From Octopus vulgaris (Eukaryota), in NCBI GenBank assembly GCA_951406725.2, contig OX597833.1, positions 32,054,001 through 32,118,000 on the forward strand: DNA of 64,000 nt, read 5' to 3'. The first letter of the stretch is position 1; the number at the start of each line of letters is the position of its first letter. Below are positions 1,379 to 30,913 of this stretch, piece by piece. Under the pieces are notes generated by a model. It ran no database searches. It had not been told where the DNA came from and saw nothing but the letters and a program-made list of their open reading frames with translations. A program made the position numbers and the translations under genes.

Positions 1379-2529
1379 AAAGACATTGAATTTAATTAAA
1401 TTAGAACAGATGGACACATTAGTATAATTATACCTAAAATCTCCAAGATGTTAAGGAGATAGACAAAGAACATGCTGTCTCACTCCAGTTTAGAAGTTAC
1501 TGAATTTTCAAGAAGATATACATTGTTACAGACTCTGCCTGTCACTGACTTTTTTGTCTTTACGGGGTCAGTTTTAATTTATAGACTAGTTTATCAAATC
1601 CCTTATATATCTAAGGCTGAGAGAACAGAGGGCAGTATCTGTTAGGGGTATAGCTGAAGTTGCAGACAGACATCATAGTTGGTATAGTCATAAAAATCAA
1701 GATTTATTCGAAGCAATATCATGCGGTTTGGTAAAGGAAAACTTAAAACAAGATGTTAGGGGGTCTCTCACTAGCAGACCATTGATAATGAAACAAGGAA
1801 AGTCTTATCATGTAGTACTATAGTTAAATATTTTAAACAATGCTGCTATATTGTATACAGTTAAAGTTTAGGGTTATTCAAAGGATTATTGAGAAGAATA
1901 CTATAACAATAGGATAGAAATTTATGAATACTTTTCAATATTACACCAAACTTTACCACAGTAGAGGGAGGAAAAGAAATTATCCTGAAATTGTTTAATA
2001 TTTATACATATTGTGCACTTAAATACTAACTCATCAGATGGTATCTGTGAATATTGATTAATTGGTATATACTGGTATTAATAAAGGAGTATTAAGGTAA
2101 AGGAGCATGCTAATTATATATTAACAAAATTATAATCTAAGCAGTATTTTTTTTATAAGTAGTGAATATACCAGTATAGTTTTATATAAGCTAAGTATGA
2201 ATTTATAGAGATACAAAAATTAGAGTAATTTTATAAATAAAAGAATAAAGAAATAAAATAAAATAATCAAGTAGGGCAGAACACCATAGAAAAGGAAATA
2301 AAATGGCTTAATTACTAATACTATGGTAAAGTATATGTAGCTTATTAACACCAATAGAGAAGATTTTTAGAAAAAGTATAATAATTCAAAAGAGGTTGCC
2401 TCATCGGAGCCTCGAATTTTTTAAAATTTACCCTCTATTGTAGTAAAAATTTAGTATATACTCAAAATATAAAAAAAAAAATGTTATCCTTTTGTTAAAA
2501 TTTGCATGGCGGAAGTCGTTCGGAGAGGG

Positions 2530-3977
2530 ACTCTCTTAAGGCACAATCGACATGATCTTTTGTGCCCGCCAACTCCAGGAGAAATGTCAAGAACAACAAC
2601 AGCCTGCAATGTTCATCTTCTGAGATCTAAAGAAAACCTTTGACAAGATCCCTCGTCCTGCAATGTGGGCCGTCCTTGCTCGGTTTGGATGTCCGGAGGA
2701 GTTCCCTGCCTTGGTTCGCTCCCTTTACGGCGGCATGGTAAGTAGAGTATGCCATCAAAATGCTCTCACATACCCGTTTCTAGTCATTGGGAGTTTTAAG
2801 CAAGGATGCATTCTGGCACCAATCTGTTCCTCTTTGTACATGGCCGCCTTGTTCAACGAAATCTCGCTAGCTTCGCCTTCCACCAGCATGCGCTATCGCT
2901 TGGATGGCGGACTTCTTCAATCTCGCACGTCTCCACGAAAAGACGGGCACCTCCGCCATCTCAGTCCGTGAGATGCAGTATGCCGACGACAATGCTACCC
3001 CGAACCGGGCCGTAGATGGCTTACAAAGGACAGCTGATCTTTACAACGTGGCTTACGAATGCTTAAGGATGCAGGTAAACACATTAAAGACCAAGACCTT
3101 GATCTAGCCTGCAGCAGGCCGCAACAGTCCACCCACGAAAGCTAGCATCAACGGCCAACCTCTAGAAGTTGAACACTCATGCCTTGGGAGTATCCTTTCG
3201 AAAACTCCCACGTGCGAAAAAGATGTGGAGAACCGGATCATGTTGGCCCACTCAGCCTTGGGTAGACTCAGCCAACGTGTATTCTTCAATCACGCAGTGT
3301 CCATTCGGACAAATATCAAGGTCTTCTGTGTCATTGTCCTGACAACTCTTCACTACGCTACGCTTCTGAGACTTGGACGCTGTATCGCTGTAACTTCAAG
3401 CGCCTTGAATGCTTCCAGCAATCCAAACTACGACAAAGCTTCAATATTTGATGGAAAGATCATATTACCAACAACGAAGTTCTTCGCTGCGCCTCACTAC
3501 TAAGCGTCGAAGCCATCATTCTTCGCTATCGTCTCCGCTGGGCAGGTCACATCCAGCGTATGGAGCCCTCTCGTCTCCCGAAGATCATGCCCTACGAGAA
3601 CCTGCTACCGGAACAAAACCCAGAGGAAGTCGGATATTCCGTTTTAAAGAACAGCTTAAACGGATCCTGGCTCAAACTAATCTCCAGCCATCCCCATGGG
3701 AACAGATTGCCATTGATAGAACAACCTGGAGGACTGCTATCCGCAATGGAGACAGCTTCTTCGAGCAGAACAGACAACAGAAAAAAGAGGTAAAACGCAA
3801 GAGAAAAAAGGAGCATTCTTCAACATCCTCGATCCGCACCCACCATCCTGTGTGAATTCTGGCCATAACTCTTTCACCACTGACTTGGACTCCAAAGGCA
3901 TATTCGGTACAAACATCTGGCTGGAGACTGGATGGAGACTGACGAACCGAATGCTCGGATACGAGCTGGAGCCGACG
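2530..3977 (+). mobile_element. 5'-truncated RTE-clade LINE (RT and C-terminus), frameshifted; same family as 56422-59703
   Basis: KQGCILAP, MQYADD and VNTLKTK motifs; closely similar in sequence to 58323-59703. Confidence 0.92.
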
Positions 3978-12839: not shown

Positions 12840-14933
12840 ATACATACATACATACATACATACATGCATATATATATATATATATATACATTCGTGAGCC
12901 GCGGGCGCGCCTGGGGTGCGGCCGGCTCCATATGCGTGCGTGTGTGTGTGTTGTGTGTGTTTGTGTGTGTGCGTGTGTATGCGTGTGTGTATACATACAT
13001 ACACACATACATGCATGCATGCACGCGCGCACACATACATACCTACATACACACACGTACACATACTTACACACATACACACATACATACATACATACAT
13101 ACACACATACGCACACACATACATACCTACACACATACATACATACACACACACATAAACACACACATATACACACACATACATACATACACAAGACATA
13201 CATACATACATACATACAGACATACATCCATACACTCACACATACATACATCCACACCCACATACACACGCACACGCATACATACATACATTACGCCCAC
13301 ACAACTCCAGAGGAAACCCCACGCACACACACATACATTCACACACACACACATACGTACACACACATACATACATACATACATTCATACTTTCATTCAT
13401 ACATACATACACACACACACACAAACATACACATACACACACACATACATACATACACACATACATACACACATACATACACACATACATACACACGCAT
13501 ACACACATACATATACACACATACATACACACACATACATACACACACACACATAAACGCACATACACATATACATACACTCATACATACACACACACAT
13601 ACATACGCACATGCATGCATACATACATACATACACACACATACACACATACACGCATGCACACATACATACATACATACACACACATACACACATGCAC
13701 ACATACATACATACACACACAATACATACATGCATACATACACACACACACTTACACACATACACACATACATACATACATACATACACACATACACACA
13801 CATACATACATACATACACACATACATACACGCACACACACATACACACATACACATACACATACACACACATACTTACATACACTCATACGGACATACA
13901 CACAGACATACACACATACACACTAACACACACATACCTACATACACACACACATACCTACATACACACACACATACCTACATACACACTCGCATGCACA
14001 CGCGCACACATGCATGCGCGCGCGCACGCACACATACATACATGCATGCACGCATGCCTGTGGGGTCTGGCTTTATTTCGGGCGCACGTCGGAGCGTGTG
14101 CGTGTGTGCCTGTAGATTCGCATGCGCCCGCACCGCAAGAGTCTTTTCCATCAGTCTTTCAGTTGCGAAGTGTGTCCTTGCATGCATATATATACATACA
14201 TATAAACATATAAACACACATATAAACCCCTACATTTGTACACACACGCACATACATACATACATTCACTCCCACGCACGTACACACACACATTTACATA
14301 TATATACAATACACGCACACACACATACACACATACAAACACACACTAATTCACACACACACTGACACATATACATACACACAGCATATACCTCCACGCG
14401 CACACACACATACACCTACGTATACACATATAAGCACAGACACACACATACATACGCACACCAAAACATACGCACACATATGCACGCACACGCGCAAAAA
14501 GAAACTCACAACCCCACGGATACACGCATATGCATCCATTTACGATTACACACACACACATACAAACGCACACATACACGCACACACAACTACACGCACA
14601 TACATACACACGCACACACACAAATGAACCCACACATACATCCTATACGGCACACAACCATACATACACGCACACAATTATACATACGTATATATACACA
14701 CACACGCACGTACAAGCACACACGCACACCTACACTAAGTTAAGCACAGTTACTCGCCATACACACAAAAAAGCGCACACGTACACACACACATACTACA
14801 ACAAAACACACACACGATACATATACACGCACACACACATACCTCCCTGTTTCTGACCTGCCTTTCTGACTTGCTAGGGTACCCCCACACCACCCCTTAA
14901 TTCTACTACTGCCTGCTACTAGCCATTGTCCAC

Positions 14934-15689: not shown

Positions 15690-16400
15690 CCCAAGCGTTC
15701 AACGCAAAAATAAAATTGAGTACATCCTAGTTGACAAACGATGCATATTGCAAAGACGTCTCAGTAGTAGCGTAATTTGACACAGGCGTTGATCATCGCT
15801 TGCTGCGAGCGAAGATCGTGATCAATAAAATTAAAGGGAAAAAGGCTATGCATATCTCATTGTAGAGTCAATGTGTGAAGCAGCTGCAGGAAGTTATCAA
15901 GAAGGAAATTTGGAATTAGCTTGAAGAACTGGATGAGAACTACAATTTGGCTGGTCCAGAAAATTAAAAACTGCATATGGAAAGCAGAAACTGCAAGCCA
16001 GCGGGAACCTGACGGAAGAATCTCGGAGGAGACGGAGAAAATGCTATAGAAACGGAAAACTATGAAGAGGAGTACAAAATATCGCTTCGAGTATTTCGTT
16101 ATTTGCAATGCGATCAGACATCTAAGAAAGGACTTCGAGAATTATAGACTGAGGAAATTGATGCAGGCTGCAGAAGAAAAGAAAAGTCTTAAAAGATGCA
16201 GGAGAGGGCTGAAACTCTGTAGGTCGGATGTGCAAGCAAATTTCCGTAGGGAGTATGGTAAGATAGATCACATATTCACATGGCTCATAGAACGATCAGA
16301 AGACTACAAGCTACCTTTGAGTATCACTTTTGTTGATTACGAAAAGGCCTGCAAGATGGCCAATATTAACCAGGTGATGGATATTTTTGGCGACACATTT
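15690..16400 (+). mobile_element. Degenerate, internally deleted RTE LINE fragment
   Basis: KNKIEYILVDK..DHRLLRAK (endonuclease C-terminal motifs) and QANFRREYGKIDHIF..FVDYEKA (RT). Confidence 0.75.
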
Positions 16401-17239
16401 ATCACTCTAACTTTTGCAAGGCGTTGACCGCAATAACCGTGGATTAAAAAGAGTTCATTCCTCGGGAATGAAACAGCTTCTTGTTCAGTCCCAAATCGCA
16501 TTTCAATCGTGCCAAACTTCTTTCCTCGACTGATGTAGGTCTTGTGCACACATACGCGTCAAGGCATTTTGAATCTAGGCCTCAGTAGCGTTTTCCACAC
16601 GGCGCGATTTTGCTCTGATATTTTCTATTACTCGGGTGGAGGGTTGAGGACTACTCGTCTCTCATTCTTTTTTTACAATTTGTTTGAGCAATTTTCATTC
16701 TTATTTATTTACGCAGAAACTTTGCACTCGCAAGAGAAATACCCTTTTCAGCATCTCTTGTGGTTGTAGTGATTGTAGACTTGGTATTGTTGTTGTTAGT
16801 GGAATTGTAAAATATATTGTTGAATTGTAGATTTGTTGAACTGTCAAAAGTTTTGAAGCTGCCAGCAAACAAAAGTGTGTTACCTTTAGCCTTTAAATTT
16901 GTGTTCGTTTTCACTAGCGTGGCGGTGATGTCATTACTGTAGTCAAGGCTGTGTCAGTAGTCTCTTGCTTTTGGGACATGGAACGCATCCCATCATGGAA
17001 CATTATAATTAATTCTTTTTCTGCCATGATTTAAAATATTTGTAAGATATCAAAATATTTGCTTTTTCAAGATAGTTTAAGATAGTTAAAAAGTATTGAT
17101 GTGTACCTCTTGCAAAACAAGGTGTGTCTCTAAACTGAAATGCTACAAGTGCAGACCAGAAAGCTGTACCAATAAAAATGAATGAATTGGGCCTTACAGA
17201 GCTCCTGGTTTCCGTGACTTTGCAGTATGGCGGTCTTAA

Positions 17240-18350
<1,111 letters not shown>

Positions 18351-18696: not shown

Positions 18697-18749
<53 letters not shown>

Positions 18750-18841
18750 GCCAATCATGGTTAAGGTTTCCCGCCCGGCACGTCCGAAACTGCCCGCATC
18801 AGTTATCTGGTGAAGAAAAGTTTTGGTTGCGCGCACGCGCA

Positions 18842-20040
18842 TTAATAGAGTAAAATCAAAATTTTAATTGATTGTTGAATGTTTTGTCGAATGAGTGTTT
18901 CGTAGTAGTAGAATGCGCAGTTGCATTTGTATGTTTGTATGTTCTGTTGTTGTAGTTGAGAGTTGAAATATTGTTTAATGAAGTTATCTCCGTGTAGTCA
19001 TTTTTCGTCAGATATTTCTGGTGAGCCGACCCATTGTATGTCCGGTGTGTATGGAGTGTAATCAAAGTTACACATGGGTGTGATTTGGCCGTGTATGAGA
19101 CATGCCTGTGCAGATTGTTCTGGATCGAACTTGCATTTGTTGTGTTGGTTTTCTATATCTCTTATGCATGCCATGGCTAGGTCGTCGTATTTGTCTTTAT
19201 TGTATGTCAGTAGTGTGTCGTATTTAAATCTTTTCGGTGTGGTTTCAAGTTCTTGTAGTTTTCTTTTTACTTTGTTGATGTTTCTTTTCGTGTTAGGAGA
19301 GTCGTAGCCAGATGGTATAATGGTATATAAGTCTGATGTTGGTGGTGTGTTGTCTGAAATGTATATGTCAGTGTATTTGTGGTCTATGTATTTGTCTATG
19401 TATGATTTCTATATCGTGGGCTTAGTTCTATTTTGCCCCATTCTTTTAGTTGAGGCATTGATCTGTGAGTGACGTAGTAAAAGAGTCTATTTTTTATGGT
19501 TTGTTCGTCTTGTGGGACGACTCTTCATGGTTCTGTGATGCTAGTCGATAGGCTCGGCGTTCTTTAGAGGATACGTTCCTGTTGATGCTTGACGTTTATG
19601 TAAGTGTCTGTTCCTTCGAGAATGCACTTGCCCTCTTCTACGTTGTTGTTTGTAAACCACATTTCATCTGTGTAGATCATTGGTTTATCTATGCAACTGC
19701 CGAATGTGAAACTGTTGGCAGCTTGGCATCTCATGCGTCCGCTGTTCATGAGTCCGTTACGTATCGATCGCAATATATATGTGTAAGGAGTTAGGTTGTC
19801 TTGGAAGACGATGTTGAAGGCGTTTTTTTCGCAGTCTTGTTCTGATGTAGTCTGCATCTTGATCAGTTTCGAGTGTTTACGAATGTTTTCGGTGTATTTA
19901 TAGGTGTGATCGTACCAGTGTTCAATGGCATTGCTGCCAGTGGGCGTGTCTTATTTGTTAACAAAGTGCCTGGAAATGTATTTGAGTGGTCGTTTTGTAT
20001 CTTCATTGTGTTGTATGGTCTGCCCTATTTTTCTATTTTT
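18842..20040 (-). pseudogene. NS1: NS1 remnant: superfamily 3 helicase plus C-terminal region; no N-terminal HUH nuclease motifs seen and Walker A deleted
   Basis: TYILRSI (tail of Walker A), FTFGSCIDKPMIYTDE (Walker B), VEEGKCILEG..INVKHQ (B'), TPSLSTS (C-like), KNRLF (Arg finger); a frameshifted C-terminal frame continues through one TGA to TAA at 18842. Confidence 0.85.
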
Positions 20041-20097
20041 AACCGCTGTACCGCGTAAGTGCCTGCTTGGGTGTGTCACTGAATGTTGAGGGAAATT

Positions 20098-21672
20098 TCA
20101 ACCTGGGGTAACTACTTCAGCTACGTCTGGGTCTATTGTTGCAATGACTTGTGAGTGGTTGAATTGTTCGTATTTGCATACGATTTCGATGTAGTAGGTG
20201 AGGTCGAAAGTGAAGTAGATAACTGGTTGTGTATTGTTCGGCCTGAGTATGACTGGTACGTTAATTAGTTGATGTCTTCTTGTAGTTGATGTCTGCTTGT
20301 CCTGGCTCTCTTGCTCTTCTTCTGACTTCTTCGAAGCCTTCTTTAATCTCTGTTGAATGGCTGCCGACGAACGGTGCTGTACCTGTGTCTAAACCTCCGT
20401 CCCATGTCATGTCGACGTTTACATTTCTTTCCCAATTAAATGCGTCTCCGAATGTGTTTGTGAGTCCCGATACGGTGTAGTTGGTGTTTTGTGTGAAATT
20501 TGTTAGACCTATTTCTAATCTGGAAGGGTTTTCCCAAAGTGTTGGAAAGTGTCACCTTGTCGTAGTGTTTTTTTTTTATCTCATGTCTCTCCAGTCGTGT
20601 AATGAAAGCAGGTACATTTAAGTTTTCTTGTTTTCTCCTTCCATTTTTGTATCTGGTGTGTATTTGTTTATGAGATGTGTCGGTGCGCAGTATGTAAGTT
20701 CGTACGTCGGTAATTCGAGGTTTGTGTAAGTGGTTGGTTCTGTGAGTCTTAATCCTTGGTTAGGTAGTTTTGATATTGATTTTAGGTTGCCGTGATCTAT
20801 GTATTTTCCTGTGTCTACGTATATTTCGAAGTAAGGTGTGAGAGAATCGACGAAGATTTCTTCGTTGTTTCTTGTTGTCCATTCTCCGCACATGATGTCG
20901 TCTATTTTGAAGCCTTGTTTGGTTATTCTGTACGACGTCGCCATTTGTGTCATTGCTTCCCATTGTGAGGGTTTTATTCATGATGTCATTTAGTAAGGGA
21001 CGATGTAGTCTTTGGATTTTGCGGTTCCTTTGCAGTAATGTCCGATGTTGTGGTAGGTTTTTTCGCCTGTAGAGTCGAATTTTTCAAACTCGATTTTTGC
21101 TTGGTTCATGTCTGTGGTTCTGATTGAGCTTCTGAACGTGCGTGACACGATAAATTTTCTGGTAAAGTTTCCGGAGTCGTCTTGGATTCCTGTTGATTGC
21201 ACGTTTGTGTTCGCATGGCTGGGTTGCGCAGCGACTGCAGCGTTTGCGTTGTTTTGCGTGTTGTCCATAACTTGATTATGGACAGGGTTAGGAAAGAGAG
21301 AACGATAAGTATCTGAATAGTCCGGTCTGAAGATTTGATCGAGTCCAAGATTGTGTTTAGCGTAGATAATTCCTGCTGATACGAGTCTCAGTGGGCCTTG
21401 TTGTATTGCTCCGTTGATGAATTGTTTGTCTGCGTCAGTAGTATCTTTTTGAGGGTCGGTGTAGTGTAGGTCATGGACTTTTGCTAGTCTGTTTAGTTCG
21501 TTTAGAGGTTCTTCGTTTATTTTTTTCGAAGATGTGTGTTCCGGGTCCTAGAAAATTTGTAGCCAGGTGGGTGTAATTCGTATGTTTCTTCTTTTAGAAG
21601 ATCGTCGAATTCTTTTTCGATTCTTTTGCTTTTGATATCTGGCTTCTCCTCCTGATGTTTTATTGGTGGCAT
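20098..21672 (-). pseudogene. VP1: Parvoviral capsid gene: VP1-unique PLA2 domain plus major capsid protein, with frameshifts and stops
   Basis: ATG at 21672 (MPPIKHQEEK..). HPPGYKF/LGPG Ca-binding loop at 21540-21561 with a 1-nt insertion. NELNRLAKVHDLHY..DADKQF catalytic HDxxY at 21461-21475. Runs in frame into ORF 21268-20990, then IVPY*..IKPSQWEAM..YRITKQGFKI, FEIYVD, TLRQGDTF (20551-20565) and IYFTFDLTYYIEIVC. Confidence 0.85.
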
Positions 21673-21689
21673 GGAAAAAGTATAAATGA

Positions 21690-21719
21690 TACTGTCACTG
21701 GTTTCCAGCGGTTTTTATA
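21690..21719 (-). promoter_or_regulatory. Putative viral capsid promoter (TATA box plus initiator)
   Basis: TATAAAAA at 21719-21712, followed by CAGT/TCATT initiator-like motifs and the ATG at 21672. Confidence 0.6.
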
Positions 21720-21784
21720 GTGCGGCACCTTTTTCTACCAGCGCCAGCACTTTCACTAAGGTGTCTCTCCCTAAGTAATTGAAT

Positions 21785-23403
21785 TCGATTAAGAAGGGAA
21801 AGGCAAGAAACTAGGAAAAATTGAGCAATGGTTAAGAGGAACCTGGTAAAATGGGAAAAAGACCGAACGAGAAAAATTAAGGAAGAAGTGTAAAATACGG
21901 AAGAACGGGTTTGATACAGTAATAGAGCAGTTAAAATAGAGGATCATGGCAAAAAGCCAGAAGATCAGAAGATTTGTGAACAGAAATAAGCAGATCGAGG
22001 AGAACAGATTGTTAAAAAATAACCCGAAGTAATTCTTCCGAACGTTAGAAGGAGACAATGGGGAAAACGTTGTTCTTGATTTTGGAGCTGAATGACATTC
22101 TACACAGAGAAATGAAAGTCAATGTTGGCGAGGCGTATAAAAAAAAAAGGTGAAGATGGTGTTGAAATCCAACCCGAATGCCAAACATTTGATTACCGCA
22201 ATGAATATCTGGGCATTTGCGGTGGTCAGATACAGTGCGTCCATCCTCGAATGGACTAAGGAGGAAATATCCACACTGGATAGAAGGACAGGAAAATTGA
22301 TGACGCTGCATGGGGCGCTACATCCTAAAAAAAACTTAAACAGACAGTATATGAAAAGAAAGACTGGTGGCAGAGGACTAATTAGTATAGACCATTGTAT
22401 AAGGAACAAAAGCAGAACGCTTGCCGAGTATTTGATGAATAGTGGTGAAGACCTGCTGCAATATGCTGCGAAAGTGTAAATGCAGATGAAATGATGGAAA
22501 GGAAGAGTTTAACCAAAGAGCTGAGGAGATGAGCAAAGATGACCTTGAAATGAGAATGCATGGACAGTTTGAAAGGAATACACAGGACGTTAAGGATAAT
22601 ACAGCACCGTGGGTATGGCTTGAGCAAGATTTGAAGCGTACCACCGAAAGCCTGATCATTGCTGCACAAGATCAGGCTTTCGCTACCAATTCAGTGAAGT
22701 ATAACGTCTATAAAACTTCTGACACCCAGAAATGCAGACTCTCTGGAAAGAGTGTGGAAAATGTGACTCACTTGGTAAGTGGATGTGAGAGCCTTGCACT
22801 AAAAGAATACAAGCGTCGCCACAATAAAGTGTGTGTATATCTTCATTGGTTCTTATGCCTTAAATACCGATATGAAGTAACAGAGAACTGGTATGAGCAT
22901 GTACCAAGTAAAGTTATGCAGGAGGATGTAAAAGTAACGATACTCTGGGACTATGATTTTCAGACGGATTGTGTAATCGAACACCGTCGGCTGGATATTG
23001 TCATATTGAATAAAAGAGACAAATACTGTCAGATCATTGATGTAGCCATACCAAATGCCATGAATAGTGTGAGTAAAGAGGTTGTAAAGAAATCAAGTAC
23101 TCCGAATTGAAAGTGGAAATGGCAAGACTTTATCGAATGGGAGAATGTAATGTAAAAGTGATACCAGTTGTGATCGGAGCATCGGGCTCAACCCCATTGA
23201 AACTTCAAGACTTCTTAAGGCAACTGGAAATCCCATACAAGATTGATGTCTTGCAAAAAGTAGCCTTGTTGGACACAGCACACATCTTAAGGAAAACTTT
23301 ATCTGTCTGAGATCCTTGTTGTGACTTGACAGATGACTAAAGACTCCGGTGCATTTTTACCTACACTGTGTTACAAAGGAATAATAATAATAATAATAAT
23401 AAT
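21785..23403 (+). mobile_element. 5'-truncated, RT-deleted R4/Dong-like RLE non-LTR retrotransposon with (TAA)n tail
   Basis: Pre-RT segment KIRRFVNRNKQIEENRLLKNNPK joined to post-RT AMNIWAFAVVRYSA, GGRGL, AAQDQA, KCRL..ENVTHLVSGC, RHNKV, RLDIVI..IIDVAIP; tail at 23380-23403. Confidence 0.9.
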
Positions 23404-30464: not shown

Positions 30465-30913
30465 GGATTTTTTCGGTTTGAACGGCAGTTTTTAACATAA
30501 ATTTCTAGGTAACTAAAAAATTTTAAACTTCGTATACTGGTAGAATGTGTTTATAAAACATATTTTTCTCTTGGCCTTATTGAGAAAATTCTATAGTTTG
30601 TAAGATATTTGTTGCTTTTTTTCTTCAATTTCTGCAATTTCAACCAATCACTGACGTCTATTGAGGTAAAAAACATTCTATGCCGTATGAATATGTCCCT
30701 CGTTTAAGAAACAGATTGGGTTTATTTACATTTGTGAAGAAAAAAAGATACCCTTCCCCCACCCCTAACCCTAACCCTAACCCTAACTAACCCTAACTAA
30801 CCCTAACCCTAAAACAGATTGAAATGCAATAGATCGATACTAGGGTCATAATTATGGGTGACAATTTCATATGACACCGCTAGAAAAAACTGCCGTTCAA
30901 ACCGAAAAGATCC
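30465..30913. mobile_element. Non-autonomous DNA transposon (MITE) with 8-bp target-site duplication, carrying (CCCTAA)n
   Basis: ~29-bp TIRs ggattttttcggtttgaacggcagttttt / aaaaactgccgttcaaaccgaaaagatcc; AAGTTGTA at 30457-30464 and 30914-30921. Confidence 0.88.

Follow-up and report, generated by a model that had tools for sequence, protein, structure and literature searches.

In a 64,000-nucleotide (nt) stretch of the Octopus vulgaris genome (contig OX597833.1, positions 32,054,001 to 32,118,000 of the forward strand, here called the window), we analyzed an endogenous parvovirus-like element. All positions given for it are those of the whole window, and the element is read on the minus strand. 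In that direction it consists of a TATA box, a capsid gene with an N-terminal phospholipase A2 (PLA2) domain, a short spacer with a second TATA box, and a gene for the nonstructural protein NS1, distributed as follows.

18803..21795, minus strand: the whole endogenous parvovirus-like element, 2993 nt, with high-copy host repeat bounding both sides
21714..21719, minus strand: TATA box of the capsid gene (TATAAAA at 21719), a putative promoter 47 nt before the ATG
19951..21672, minus strand: broken capsid (VP1-like) gene
21340..21580, minus strand: PLA2-like N-terminal domain with calcium loop and HD..Y..D motifs, interrupted by a frame change
19858..19950, minus strand: intergenic spacer of about 94 nt, holding the second TATA box (19902-19895)
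19780..19857, minus strand: first 26 codons of NS1, aligned to the N-terminus of protein P0025
19779..19780, minus strand: NS1 deletion junction, with about 307 codons gone (HUH nuclease, linker and Walker A)
19420..19779, minus strand: remainder of the superfamily 3 (SF3) helicase (Walker B, B', C and arginine finger), with two in-frame stops
18845..19419, minus strand: NS1 C-terminal region, with a frame change near 19410 and a stop near 18999, matching L031, L034 and P0008

The capsid gene runs from an ATG at 21672 to a stop at 19953-19951, and its pieces are colinear, from the first to the last residue, with the intact 608-residue protein P0004 and with the paralog P0001. It is interrupted by frame changes near 21550, 20580-20550 and 20270, by in-frame stops near 20991, 20979, 20619 and 20099, and by the absence of about 50 codons near 20270. 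A sequence-only reading of the locus had quoted TATA, PLA2, capsid and helicase motifs in that order, and six-frame translation of 18700-21900 recovered every one of them, each on the minus strand, in the order given. These include PGYKF and LGPG, which are separated by the frame change near 21550, as well as HDLHY..D, PSQWEAM..YRITKQGFKI, FEIYVD and LRQGD. Neither half of the split PLA2 in the window matches Pfam by itself, and the VP1-type PLA2 of that reading is borne out by the relatives: PF08398 scores over the cut-off in capsids P0001, P0004 and P0013, and a paralogous capsid read with X at its two stops matches Phospholip_A2_4 (E 1.6e-6). Most genera of Parvoviridae carry a PLA2 at this place in VP1.

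The NS1 gene is preceded by a TATA box of its own (19902) and begins at an ATG at 19857. On the minus strand of the element, a TATA box followed 25 to 50 nt later by an ATG is confined to the two gene starts. Since the rest of the window abounds in such pairs, the support for these putative promoters is positional only. The head of NS1 corresponds to residues 1-26 of P0007 and the next residue to residue 333, the two being joined in frame just past Walker A. When the head was aligned to the N-terminus of P0025, 1 of 2000 shuffles scored as well, against 48 of 2000 for P0007 and 166 of 2000 for each of P0028 and P0045, where the match is weaker. A candidate Walker A remnant near 19800 was rejected, the stretch being the NS1 N-terminus, and a search of the window with the HUH-domain profile gave no match. 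Beyond the junction, Walker B (IYTDE), B' (KCILEGT..VKH), motif C and the arginine finger can be read. The piece at 19567-19950 matches Pfam Parvo_NS1 over the curated cut-off (E 2.9e-5), the sole such match among 12 window pieces scanned, so that the parvoviral type of the helicase proposed earlier stands, together with its long C-terminal region. The window helicase is 78% identical to P0007 across 117 columns, and an ATTAAA lies at 18868, near the end of NS1. With a broken capsid gene and an NS1 that lacks HUH and Walker A, the copy is dead as a virus, and the element is confirmed as a decayed germ-line insertion of a small parvovirus-like virus.

The insertion lies in a host retrotransposon without long terminal repeats (non-LTR), which is present as two pieces.

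18747..18802, plus strand: 5' piece of the retrotransposon (start of its open reading frame, ORF), high-copy
21796..23403, plus strand: rest of the retrotransposon, internally deleted and with a (TAA)n end (best 150 of 22013 candidate matches scored)

The interval first assigned to the element, 18750-21780, needed correction at both ends: 18747-18802 and everything from 21796 onward belong to the host, and the last 43 nt of that interval are a high-copy repeat. A GC-rich stretch at 18760-18802, considered as a viral terminus, was likewise rejected as host repeat. A sister copy of the retrotransposon (L057) matches RVT_1 (E 1.7e-16), and from its motifs and (TAA)n flanks the retrotransposon may be of the R4/Dong type. 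The genome assembly searched comprises 2.8 Gb in 227 contigs, and in nine out of 19 repeat loci the piece matching 18750-18802 sits 692-1066 nt upstream of the piece that begins at 21796, on the same strand. The same two pieces are 2993 nt apart in the window, with viral sequence in between. From this spacing we conclude that viral DNA replaced about 750 nt of the retrotransposon ORF, in antisense orientation. The DNA that entered would have been of near unit length, and repair of a break in an old copy or a template switch by the reverse transcriptase during retrotransposition would both fit as the route of entry, followed by neutral decay. The chimera of virus and retrotransposon was found as a single copy in the genome.

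The continuity of the element was compared with sequencing runs, of which nine among those listed contain at least half of the sampled words; four runs from four studies were used, and run X12 (share 0.10) was left aside. RNA runs did not appear among those listed, which says nothing about expression. In two of these (X4 and X6) one contig each, of 3069 and 3054 nt, spans the entire element with 9-10 substitutions. One 378-nt contig of a third run (19886-20263) bridges the junction of capsid and NS1, while the fourth (X8) has no cover over 18879-20306 and is uninformative. Read depth is that of a single copy from about 18880 to 21730. Because contigs from independent runs span the element, it is not misassembled.

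Protein and DNA searches of the genome mapped 16 further virus-bearing loci. Both genes are present in four (L036, L037, L039 and L040), the capsid gene alone in three and NS alone in nine, two of the latter (L049 and L051) belonging to a different lineage. As L036 and L037 are duplicates, 98.1% identical over 9.8 kb and about 18 kb apart, they were counted as one insertion.

G000:C20:34466500-34494900: the L036/L037 segmental duplication with the second capsid-NS1 insertion, 2.4 Mb from the window

The capsid gene precedes NS1 on one strand in all four independent two-gene insertions, namely the window, L039, L040 and L036/L037. In these relatives the NS1 N-terminal domain is retained: in L039 (E 7e-25) and L036/L037 (E 2e-24 and 1e-24) its HUH profile has a match that lies after the capsid and before the helicase, and in L040 the start of NS1 follows the capsid gene and a host insertion (E 1e-16). 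The sequence-only reading had named paralogs with the same order and an HUH domain between the genes as the evidence to look for, and both were thus obtained. HFH and YL-type motifs are found in the intact NS1 proteins, L039, L036/L037 and L042. The distance from the last capsid match to the first NS match in L039 fits a capsid end, a spacer of about 110 nt and an NS1 start, and TATA-like boxes precede the capsid ATG also in L040 and L039. Near 3970-3978 of L039, the last capsid codons spell, by eye, an AATAAA polyadenylation signal, which fits a separate capsid transcript. Upstream of the capsid gene of L040, a word resembling a nonanucleotide was considered and dropped, as it had, by eye, no flanking stem.

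The reverse arrangement, on which all relatives could have agreed, did not appear: no capsid was found downstream of NS1 in six flanks searched with intact capsids, and no NS1 upstream of the capsid in seven flanks searched with intact NS1 proteins. Only three insertions reach each end of the element, and these negatives are modest evidence. Three insertions start just above the capsid TATA box and three stop just after NS1, as expected of unit-length linear DNA. Comparisons of codons (pairs against the window, and L040 against L036) gave proportions of synonymous and nonsynonymous differences of 0.47-0.92 and 0.10-0.43, respectively, and in all 15 comparisons obtained the synonymous divergence was saturated or omega was 0.04-0.46. 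It follows that the copies diverged as selected viral genes before integration and not as host duplicates; the insertions derive from different viruses and are independent events.

Intact relatives were found in Logan, where full-length unnamed capsids of 606-621 residues share 41-45% identity with P0001, on contigs that reach 4.5 kb, and NS1 proteins of 514-642 residues share as much as 77% with P0002, on contigs that reach 5.2 kb. The contigs encoding P0004, P0005, P0012, P0006 and P0010 measure 4470, 4409, 4078, 3807 and 5245 nt, respectively. Some of the contigs bearing relatives measure about 2-2.5 kb and others 3.7-5.2 kb; the latter, together with the ORF sizes, suggest a genome unit of about 4 kb; members of Parvoviridae have genomes of 4-6 kb in non-enveloped T=1 virions. 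None of the 15 proteins looked up in or near the clade had a name. One named homolog is from cuttlefish (P0018), and this protein and the insertions in the present genome make a mollusc host for the lineage possible. Nothing related was found in scans of IMG/VR, none of four proteins matched NCBIfam, and the JGI (Joint Genome Institute) metagenomes yielded no member of the window's clade and one distant relative.

Pfam Parvo_NS1 matches relatives at E 1.8e-18 and 3.8e-16, and the NS1 structure model of an intact relative has a predicted local distance difference test score (pLDDT) of 87.1. Residues 21-477 of this model align to Rep68 of adeno-associated virus 2 (AAV2) with Z 22.7 and a root-mean-square deviation (rmsd) of 20 over 372 aligned residues, the domains being hinged, and the helicase aligns to NS1 of parvovirus B19 with Z 22.0 and rmsd 3.6 over 259 residues. 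Helicase Z scores are 20-22 to AAV and B19 proteins, compared with 8.1 to the Rep of the circovirus PCV2 (porcine circovirus 2). An Atlas match of the HUH domain (0.80-0.82) is a lead only. By its sequence profiles and predicted fold, the NS1 of the lineage qualifies as an HUH endonuclease joined to a parvovirus-type SF3 helicase, the former being deleted in the window copy. Entries from bird cloaca named 'parvoviridae sp.' rank first for NS1 in BFVD (17-19% identity), before ichthama-, chaphama- and IHHNV (infectious hypodermal and hematopoietic necrosis virus) NS1; identity to named BFVD entries overall is 12-30%, where more than about 35-40% would be expected within a described subfamily or genus. 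The nearest named rows in the profile search were also bird-cloacal 'Parvoviridae sp.' (E 9e-35 and 2e-29).

In the model of a relative's capsid, only the PLA2 folds confidently (residues 11-95, pLDDT about 57-84), and Foldseek matches of this low-confidence model to BFVD serve as leads only. When capsids are compared by language-model features (Atlas), a cluster that includes Denso_VP4 (25% of members) and VP1_2 (14%) scores 0.94 and one of VP1_2 (87%) scores 0.93, yet a smacovirus capsid cluster also reaches 0.93. For the PLA2 domain, a VP1 in the PDB is matched at E 0.006. A profile match to a conserved VP stretch of VP1 chains in the PDB is sub-threshold, and a PDB sequence search with P0001 returned no match. 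On this indirect support, the body of the capsid is likely a jelly roll.

A phylogeny of the SF3 helicase, as had been proposed for this locus, was built from proteins with enough of that domain. A quick tree held 106 out of 160 proteins, and a careful one held 55 of these and three added rows. In the latter, a 58-row tree without references of the virus taxonomy committee (ICTV), the window and nine relatives form a clade with 100/100 support on a stem of length 1.32. Its neighbors are poorly supported, and no named member occurs among the rows looked up.

The distant JGI relative, L052, was found by scanning with the nearest outside group. It is a contig of 4071 nt without host flanks, in which a capsid-like ORF (413-1900) is followed after 9 nt by NS1 (1910-3607) on the same strand and then by a hairpin of 29 bp, 124 nt from the contig end (z -7.7, matched in none of 200 shuffles). 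The NS1 matches Parvo_NS1 (E 3.8e-16) and the capsid-like ORF a solved parvoviral VP2 (E 0.0034), while no Pfam PLA2 match was found in this capsid. The contig ends share no direct repeat of at least 14 nt. L052 falls together with entries from Turdus and Tarsiger, outside the window's clade. By analogy, this one contig lends support to a capsid-first order; its layout resembles what a linear genome of that order would show at its right end, though it may also be a circle with a single hairpin as its origin. A further ORF of 171 codons (309-824), without a Pfam match, overlaps the capsid start of L052 in another frame.

Taken together, we think it rather probable that a real capsid-first lineage lies behind these insertions, with a linear genome and swapped cassettes. 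The virus would carry the capsid cassette first and NS1 second, on one strand and each with a TATA promoter, in a unit of about 4 kb, and its genome, with terminal hairpins, would be that of a monosense parvovirus with the two cassettes exchanged. As in the family at large, NS1 would nick through its HUH domain and unwind through its SF3 helicase in rolling-hairpin replication, and the N-terminal PLA2 of the capsid would aid endosomal escape. A wider version, namely that cephalopods host an extant linear lineage of subfamily rank with swapped cassettes and repeated germ-line entry, and that a capsid-first order in another deep clade (L052) makes a sizeable branch of parvoviruses break the rule of NS on the left, seems to us about evenly poised between right and wrong. 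In Parvoviridae the VP cassette lies to the right of NS or on the opposite strand. As the capsid gene precedes NS1 on the same strand in all four two-gene insertions, a layout that fails this rule, the element is filed as parvovirus-like and not in a described subfamily.

Several observations weigh against a linear capsid-first genome or its wider version. Folding of insertion ends revealed no terminal hairpin for the window (z -1.2 and -1.6) or for L039 (z -1.2), and that at the end of L040 is marginal (z -2.5, 4 of 200 shuffles). Four junctions of one kind against none of the other give p ~0.06 against a randomly broken circle. The intact Logan relatives are known from their proteins alone and not from surrounding DNA, and the modeled capsid body (residues 96-608) has pLDDT <50. 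As for L052, a joint clade with the window lineage is neither shown nor rejected (approximately unbiased test, p 0.142), and hhalign gives a probability of 0.9% for its capsid against that of the lineage.

The missing hairpins would be accounted for by a circular single-stranded DNA genome that carries the two genes on the same strand and has its origin after the end of NS1 and before the start of the capsid gene. NS1 would nick the circle there, pieces of unit length would integrate capsid-first, and the order would merely reflect where the circle opens. Such a genome explains the same junctions and ends, the single hairpin of L052 could be its origin, and apparently circular parvovirus-like contigs are described by Buck et al. 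(PMC11071296), at least in the sections available. However, that group exceeds 5 kb and has an extra gene not seen here. Moreover, no insertion crosses from NS1 into the capsid, the stretches downstream of NS and upstream of the capsid have no sequence in common (5 x 5 compared), L052 is without a terminal direct repeat, and the helicase is nearer to AAV and B19 (Z 20-22) than to the circovirus Rep (Z 8.1); CRESS-DNA viruses (Cressdnaviricota) combine a circular genome and a stem-loop origin with a Rep of CRESS type. We therefore regard a circular genome as unlikely, while giving it some real weight.

The remaining explanations dispense with a capsid-first virus. An ordinary parvovirus with NS before VP could have been permuted each time through integration of a head-to-tail concatemer or a circularised episome. 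Circular and concatemeric parvovirus intermediates are known. That all characterised monosense parvoviruses place NS on the left, as a 2024 review states in its available part (PMC11357303), also speaks for permutation. The junction should then hold both termini, but it measures about 94-110 nt with one TATA box and no palindrome (none was found in the window's spacer when looked for), and in L052 the ORFs are only 9 nt apart. Permutation would also have to recur in four unrelated insertions while the native NS-VP junction was never captured; it is largely refuted and very improbable. Slightly less credence still goes to a bipartite virus with separate capsid and NS segments joined at integration. 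An apparent promoter for each cassette, the many loci with NS only (9) or capsid only (3), the Logan contigs of about 2-2.5 kb and the existence of a segmented densovirus of Acheta domesticus (AdSDV; PMC10267136, from the part available) would agree with it. Yet independent insertions agree in order, strand and short spacer, the loci with one gene only contain random internal pieces rather than whole cassettes, and other Logan contigs reach 3.7-5.2 kb. An assembly artefact or one-off host rearrangement might be suspected from the repeat-dense surroundings and the large deletions of this copy, but with spanning contigs in two out of four runs and the same order at other loci it is refuted, and we give it practically no chance. 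Of the two origins envisaged in the sequence-only reading, an undescribed lineage with swapped order is hence the one supported, while a one-off permutation or misassembly is refuted.

Several viral fragments adjoin or sit between direct host repeats that are 80-99% identical and often retrotransposon-like.

L040: 3451-3773 and 6592-6885
L034: 4166-4621 and 5906-6361
L035: 3381-3768 and 5765-6155
L048: 5207-5789 and 7653-8233

This hints at retrotransposon-linked capture, in loci that are repeat-dense and were viewed with no control comparison. A second, distant lineage of parvoviral NS1, 23-37% identical to P0007/P0008, is endogenous in the same genome, at the following loci.

L049: 3900-5270 (G000:C9)
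L051: 3543-5543 (G000:C29)
L033: 7132-7502 and 9314-9526

The copy in L049 keeps an HFH motif and lies inside a retrotransposon that has a flanking duplication of 67 nt; the queries used turned up no capsid. Elsewhere in the window are microsatellites of about 1.1 kb (GAC/GAG/GAT triplets, 17250-18347) and about 1 kb ((ATAC)n, 12991-13986), a short interstitial telomere-like CCTAA/CCCTAA array (30763-30812), and a 156-nt tandem duplication (738-1025) that is 100% identical and possibly recent or an assembly slip. An open frame of 125 codons on the plus strand (16050-16427) has no Pfam match and contains what we take to be a reverse-transcriptase-like word.

A model of parvoviral expression builds on the layout with NS on the left: NS1 is made first, from the left promoter, and in turn activates the promoter of the capsid gene. 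A capsid-first lineage, if true, would be a natural test of how the timing of parvoviral expression is controlled. The layout with NS on the left and VP on the right is stated as universal in the part of the 2024 review available (PMC11357303), and a capsid-first lineage, monosense or circular, would show that it is not required. Through the insertions, a clade of intact public sequences that otherwise has no name is linked to a host group, and they point to a possible undescribed cephalopod virus.

As regards known systems, Bidnaviridae encode a protein-primed DNA polymerase (PolB) and have an NS1 without an HUH domain. The present lineage differs in that its NS1 has HUH, and the element holds no further long ORF (PolB was not searched by profile). 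Neither a monosense order with the capsid first nor parvoviral insertions in cephalopods were found described in the literature, though the genome maps of Dai et al. (Fig. 5A) and Buck et al. may already draw such layouts. The mollusc sequences of Francois et al. 2016 (PMC5013282) branch outside known genera; the main text of that paper, as far as available, does not contain the words octopus or cephalopod and does not discuss gene order. The 'Cah-bearing', apparently circular parvoviruses (Buck et al. 2024, PMC11071296) share an NS1 and VP of parvovirus type, and a circle would make the order relative, but in the portion available they are larger (>5 kb) with an extra helical protein. The Swazi bat-associated megaparvovirus lineage (Verhoeven et al. 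2026, PMC13426907, a paper whose available text lists six parvovirus subfamilies) is also divergent, partly defined by endogenous copies, and has a PLA2 ORF 5' of NS1. By the same text its capsid gene is 3' of NS1 and without PLA2, in a genome of about 6.4 kb with four ORFs and beetle hosts, whereas here the whole PLA2-capsid gene is 5' of NS1. The unclassified bird-cloacal 'Parvoviridae sp.' (Turdus hortulorum, Motacilla cinerea, Emberiza spp., Tarsiger cyanurus; Dai et al. 2023, PMC9896142) are the top BFVD matches for NS1 and for the low-confidence capsid model, but the window lineage is a separate clade on a long stem; in the available part of that study, its 17 unclassified genomes are called monosense or ambisense and capsid-first order is unmentioned. 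Also among the closest known systems are the monosense Parvoviridae (Dependoparvovirus, Bocaparvovirus, Iteradensovirus), with an NS1 of HUH and SF3 domains folded like AAV2 Rep68 and B19 NS1, a VP1 with N-terminal PLA2, and two cassettes on one strand in about 4 kb. From these the present lineage differs in an NS1 only 12-20% identical to named proteins (full-length structural alignments) and in the reversed order of its cassettes. While parvoviral fossils as such are ordinary, this gene order is what is new.

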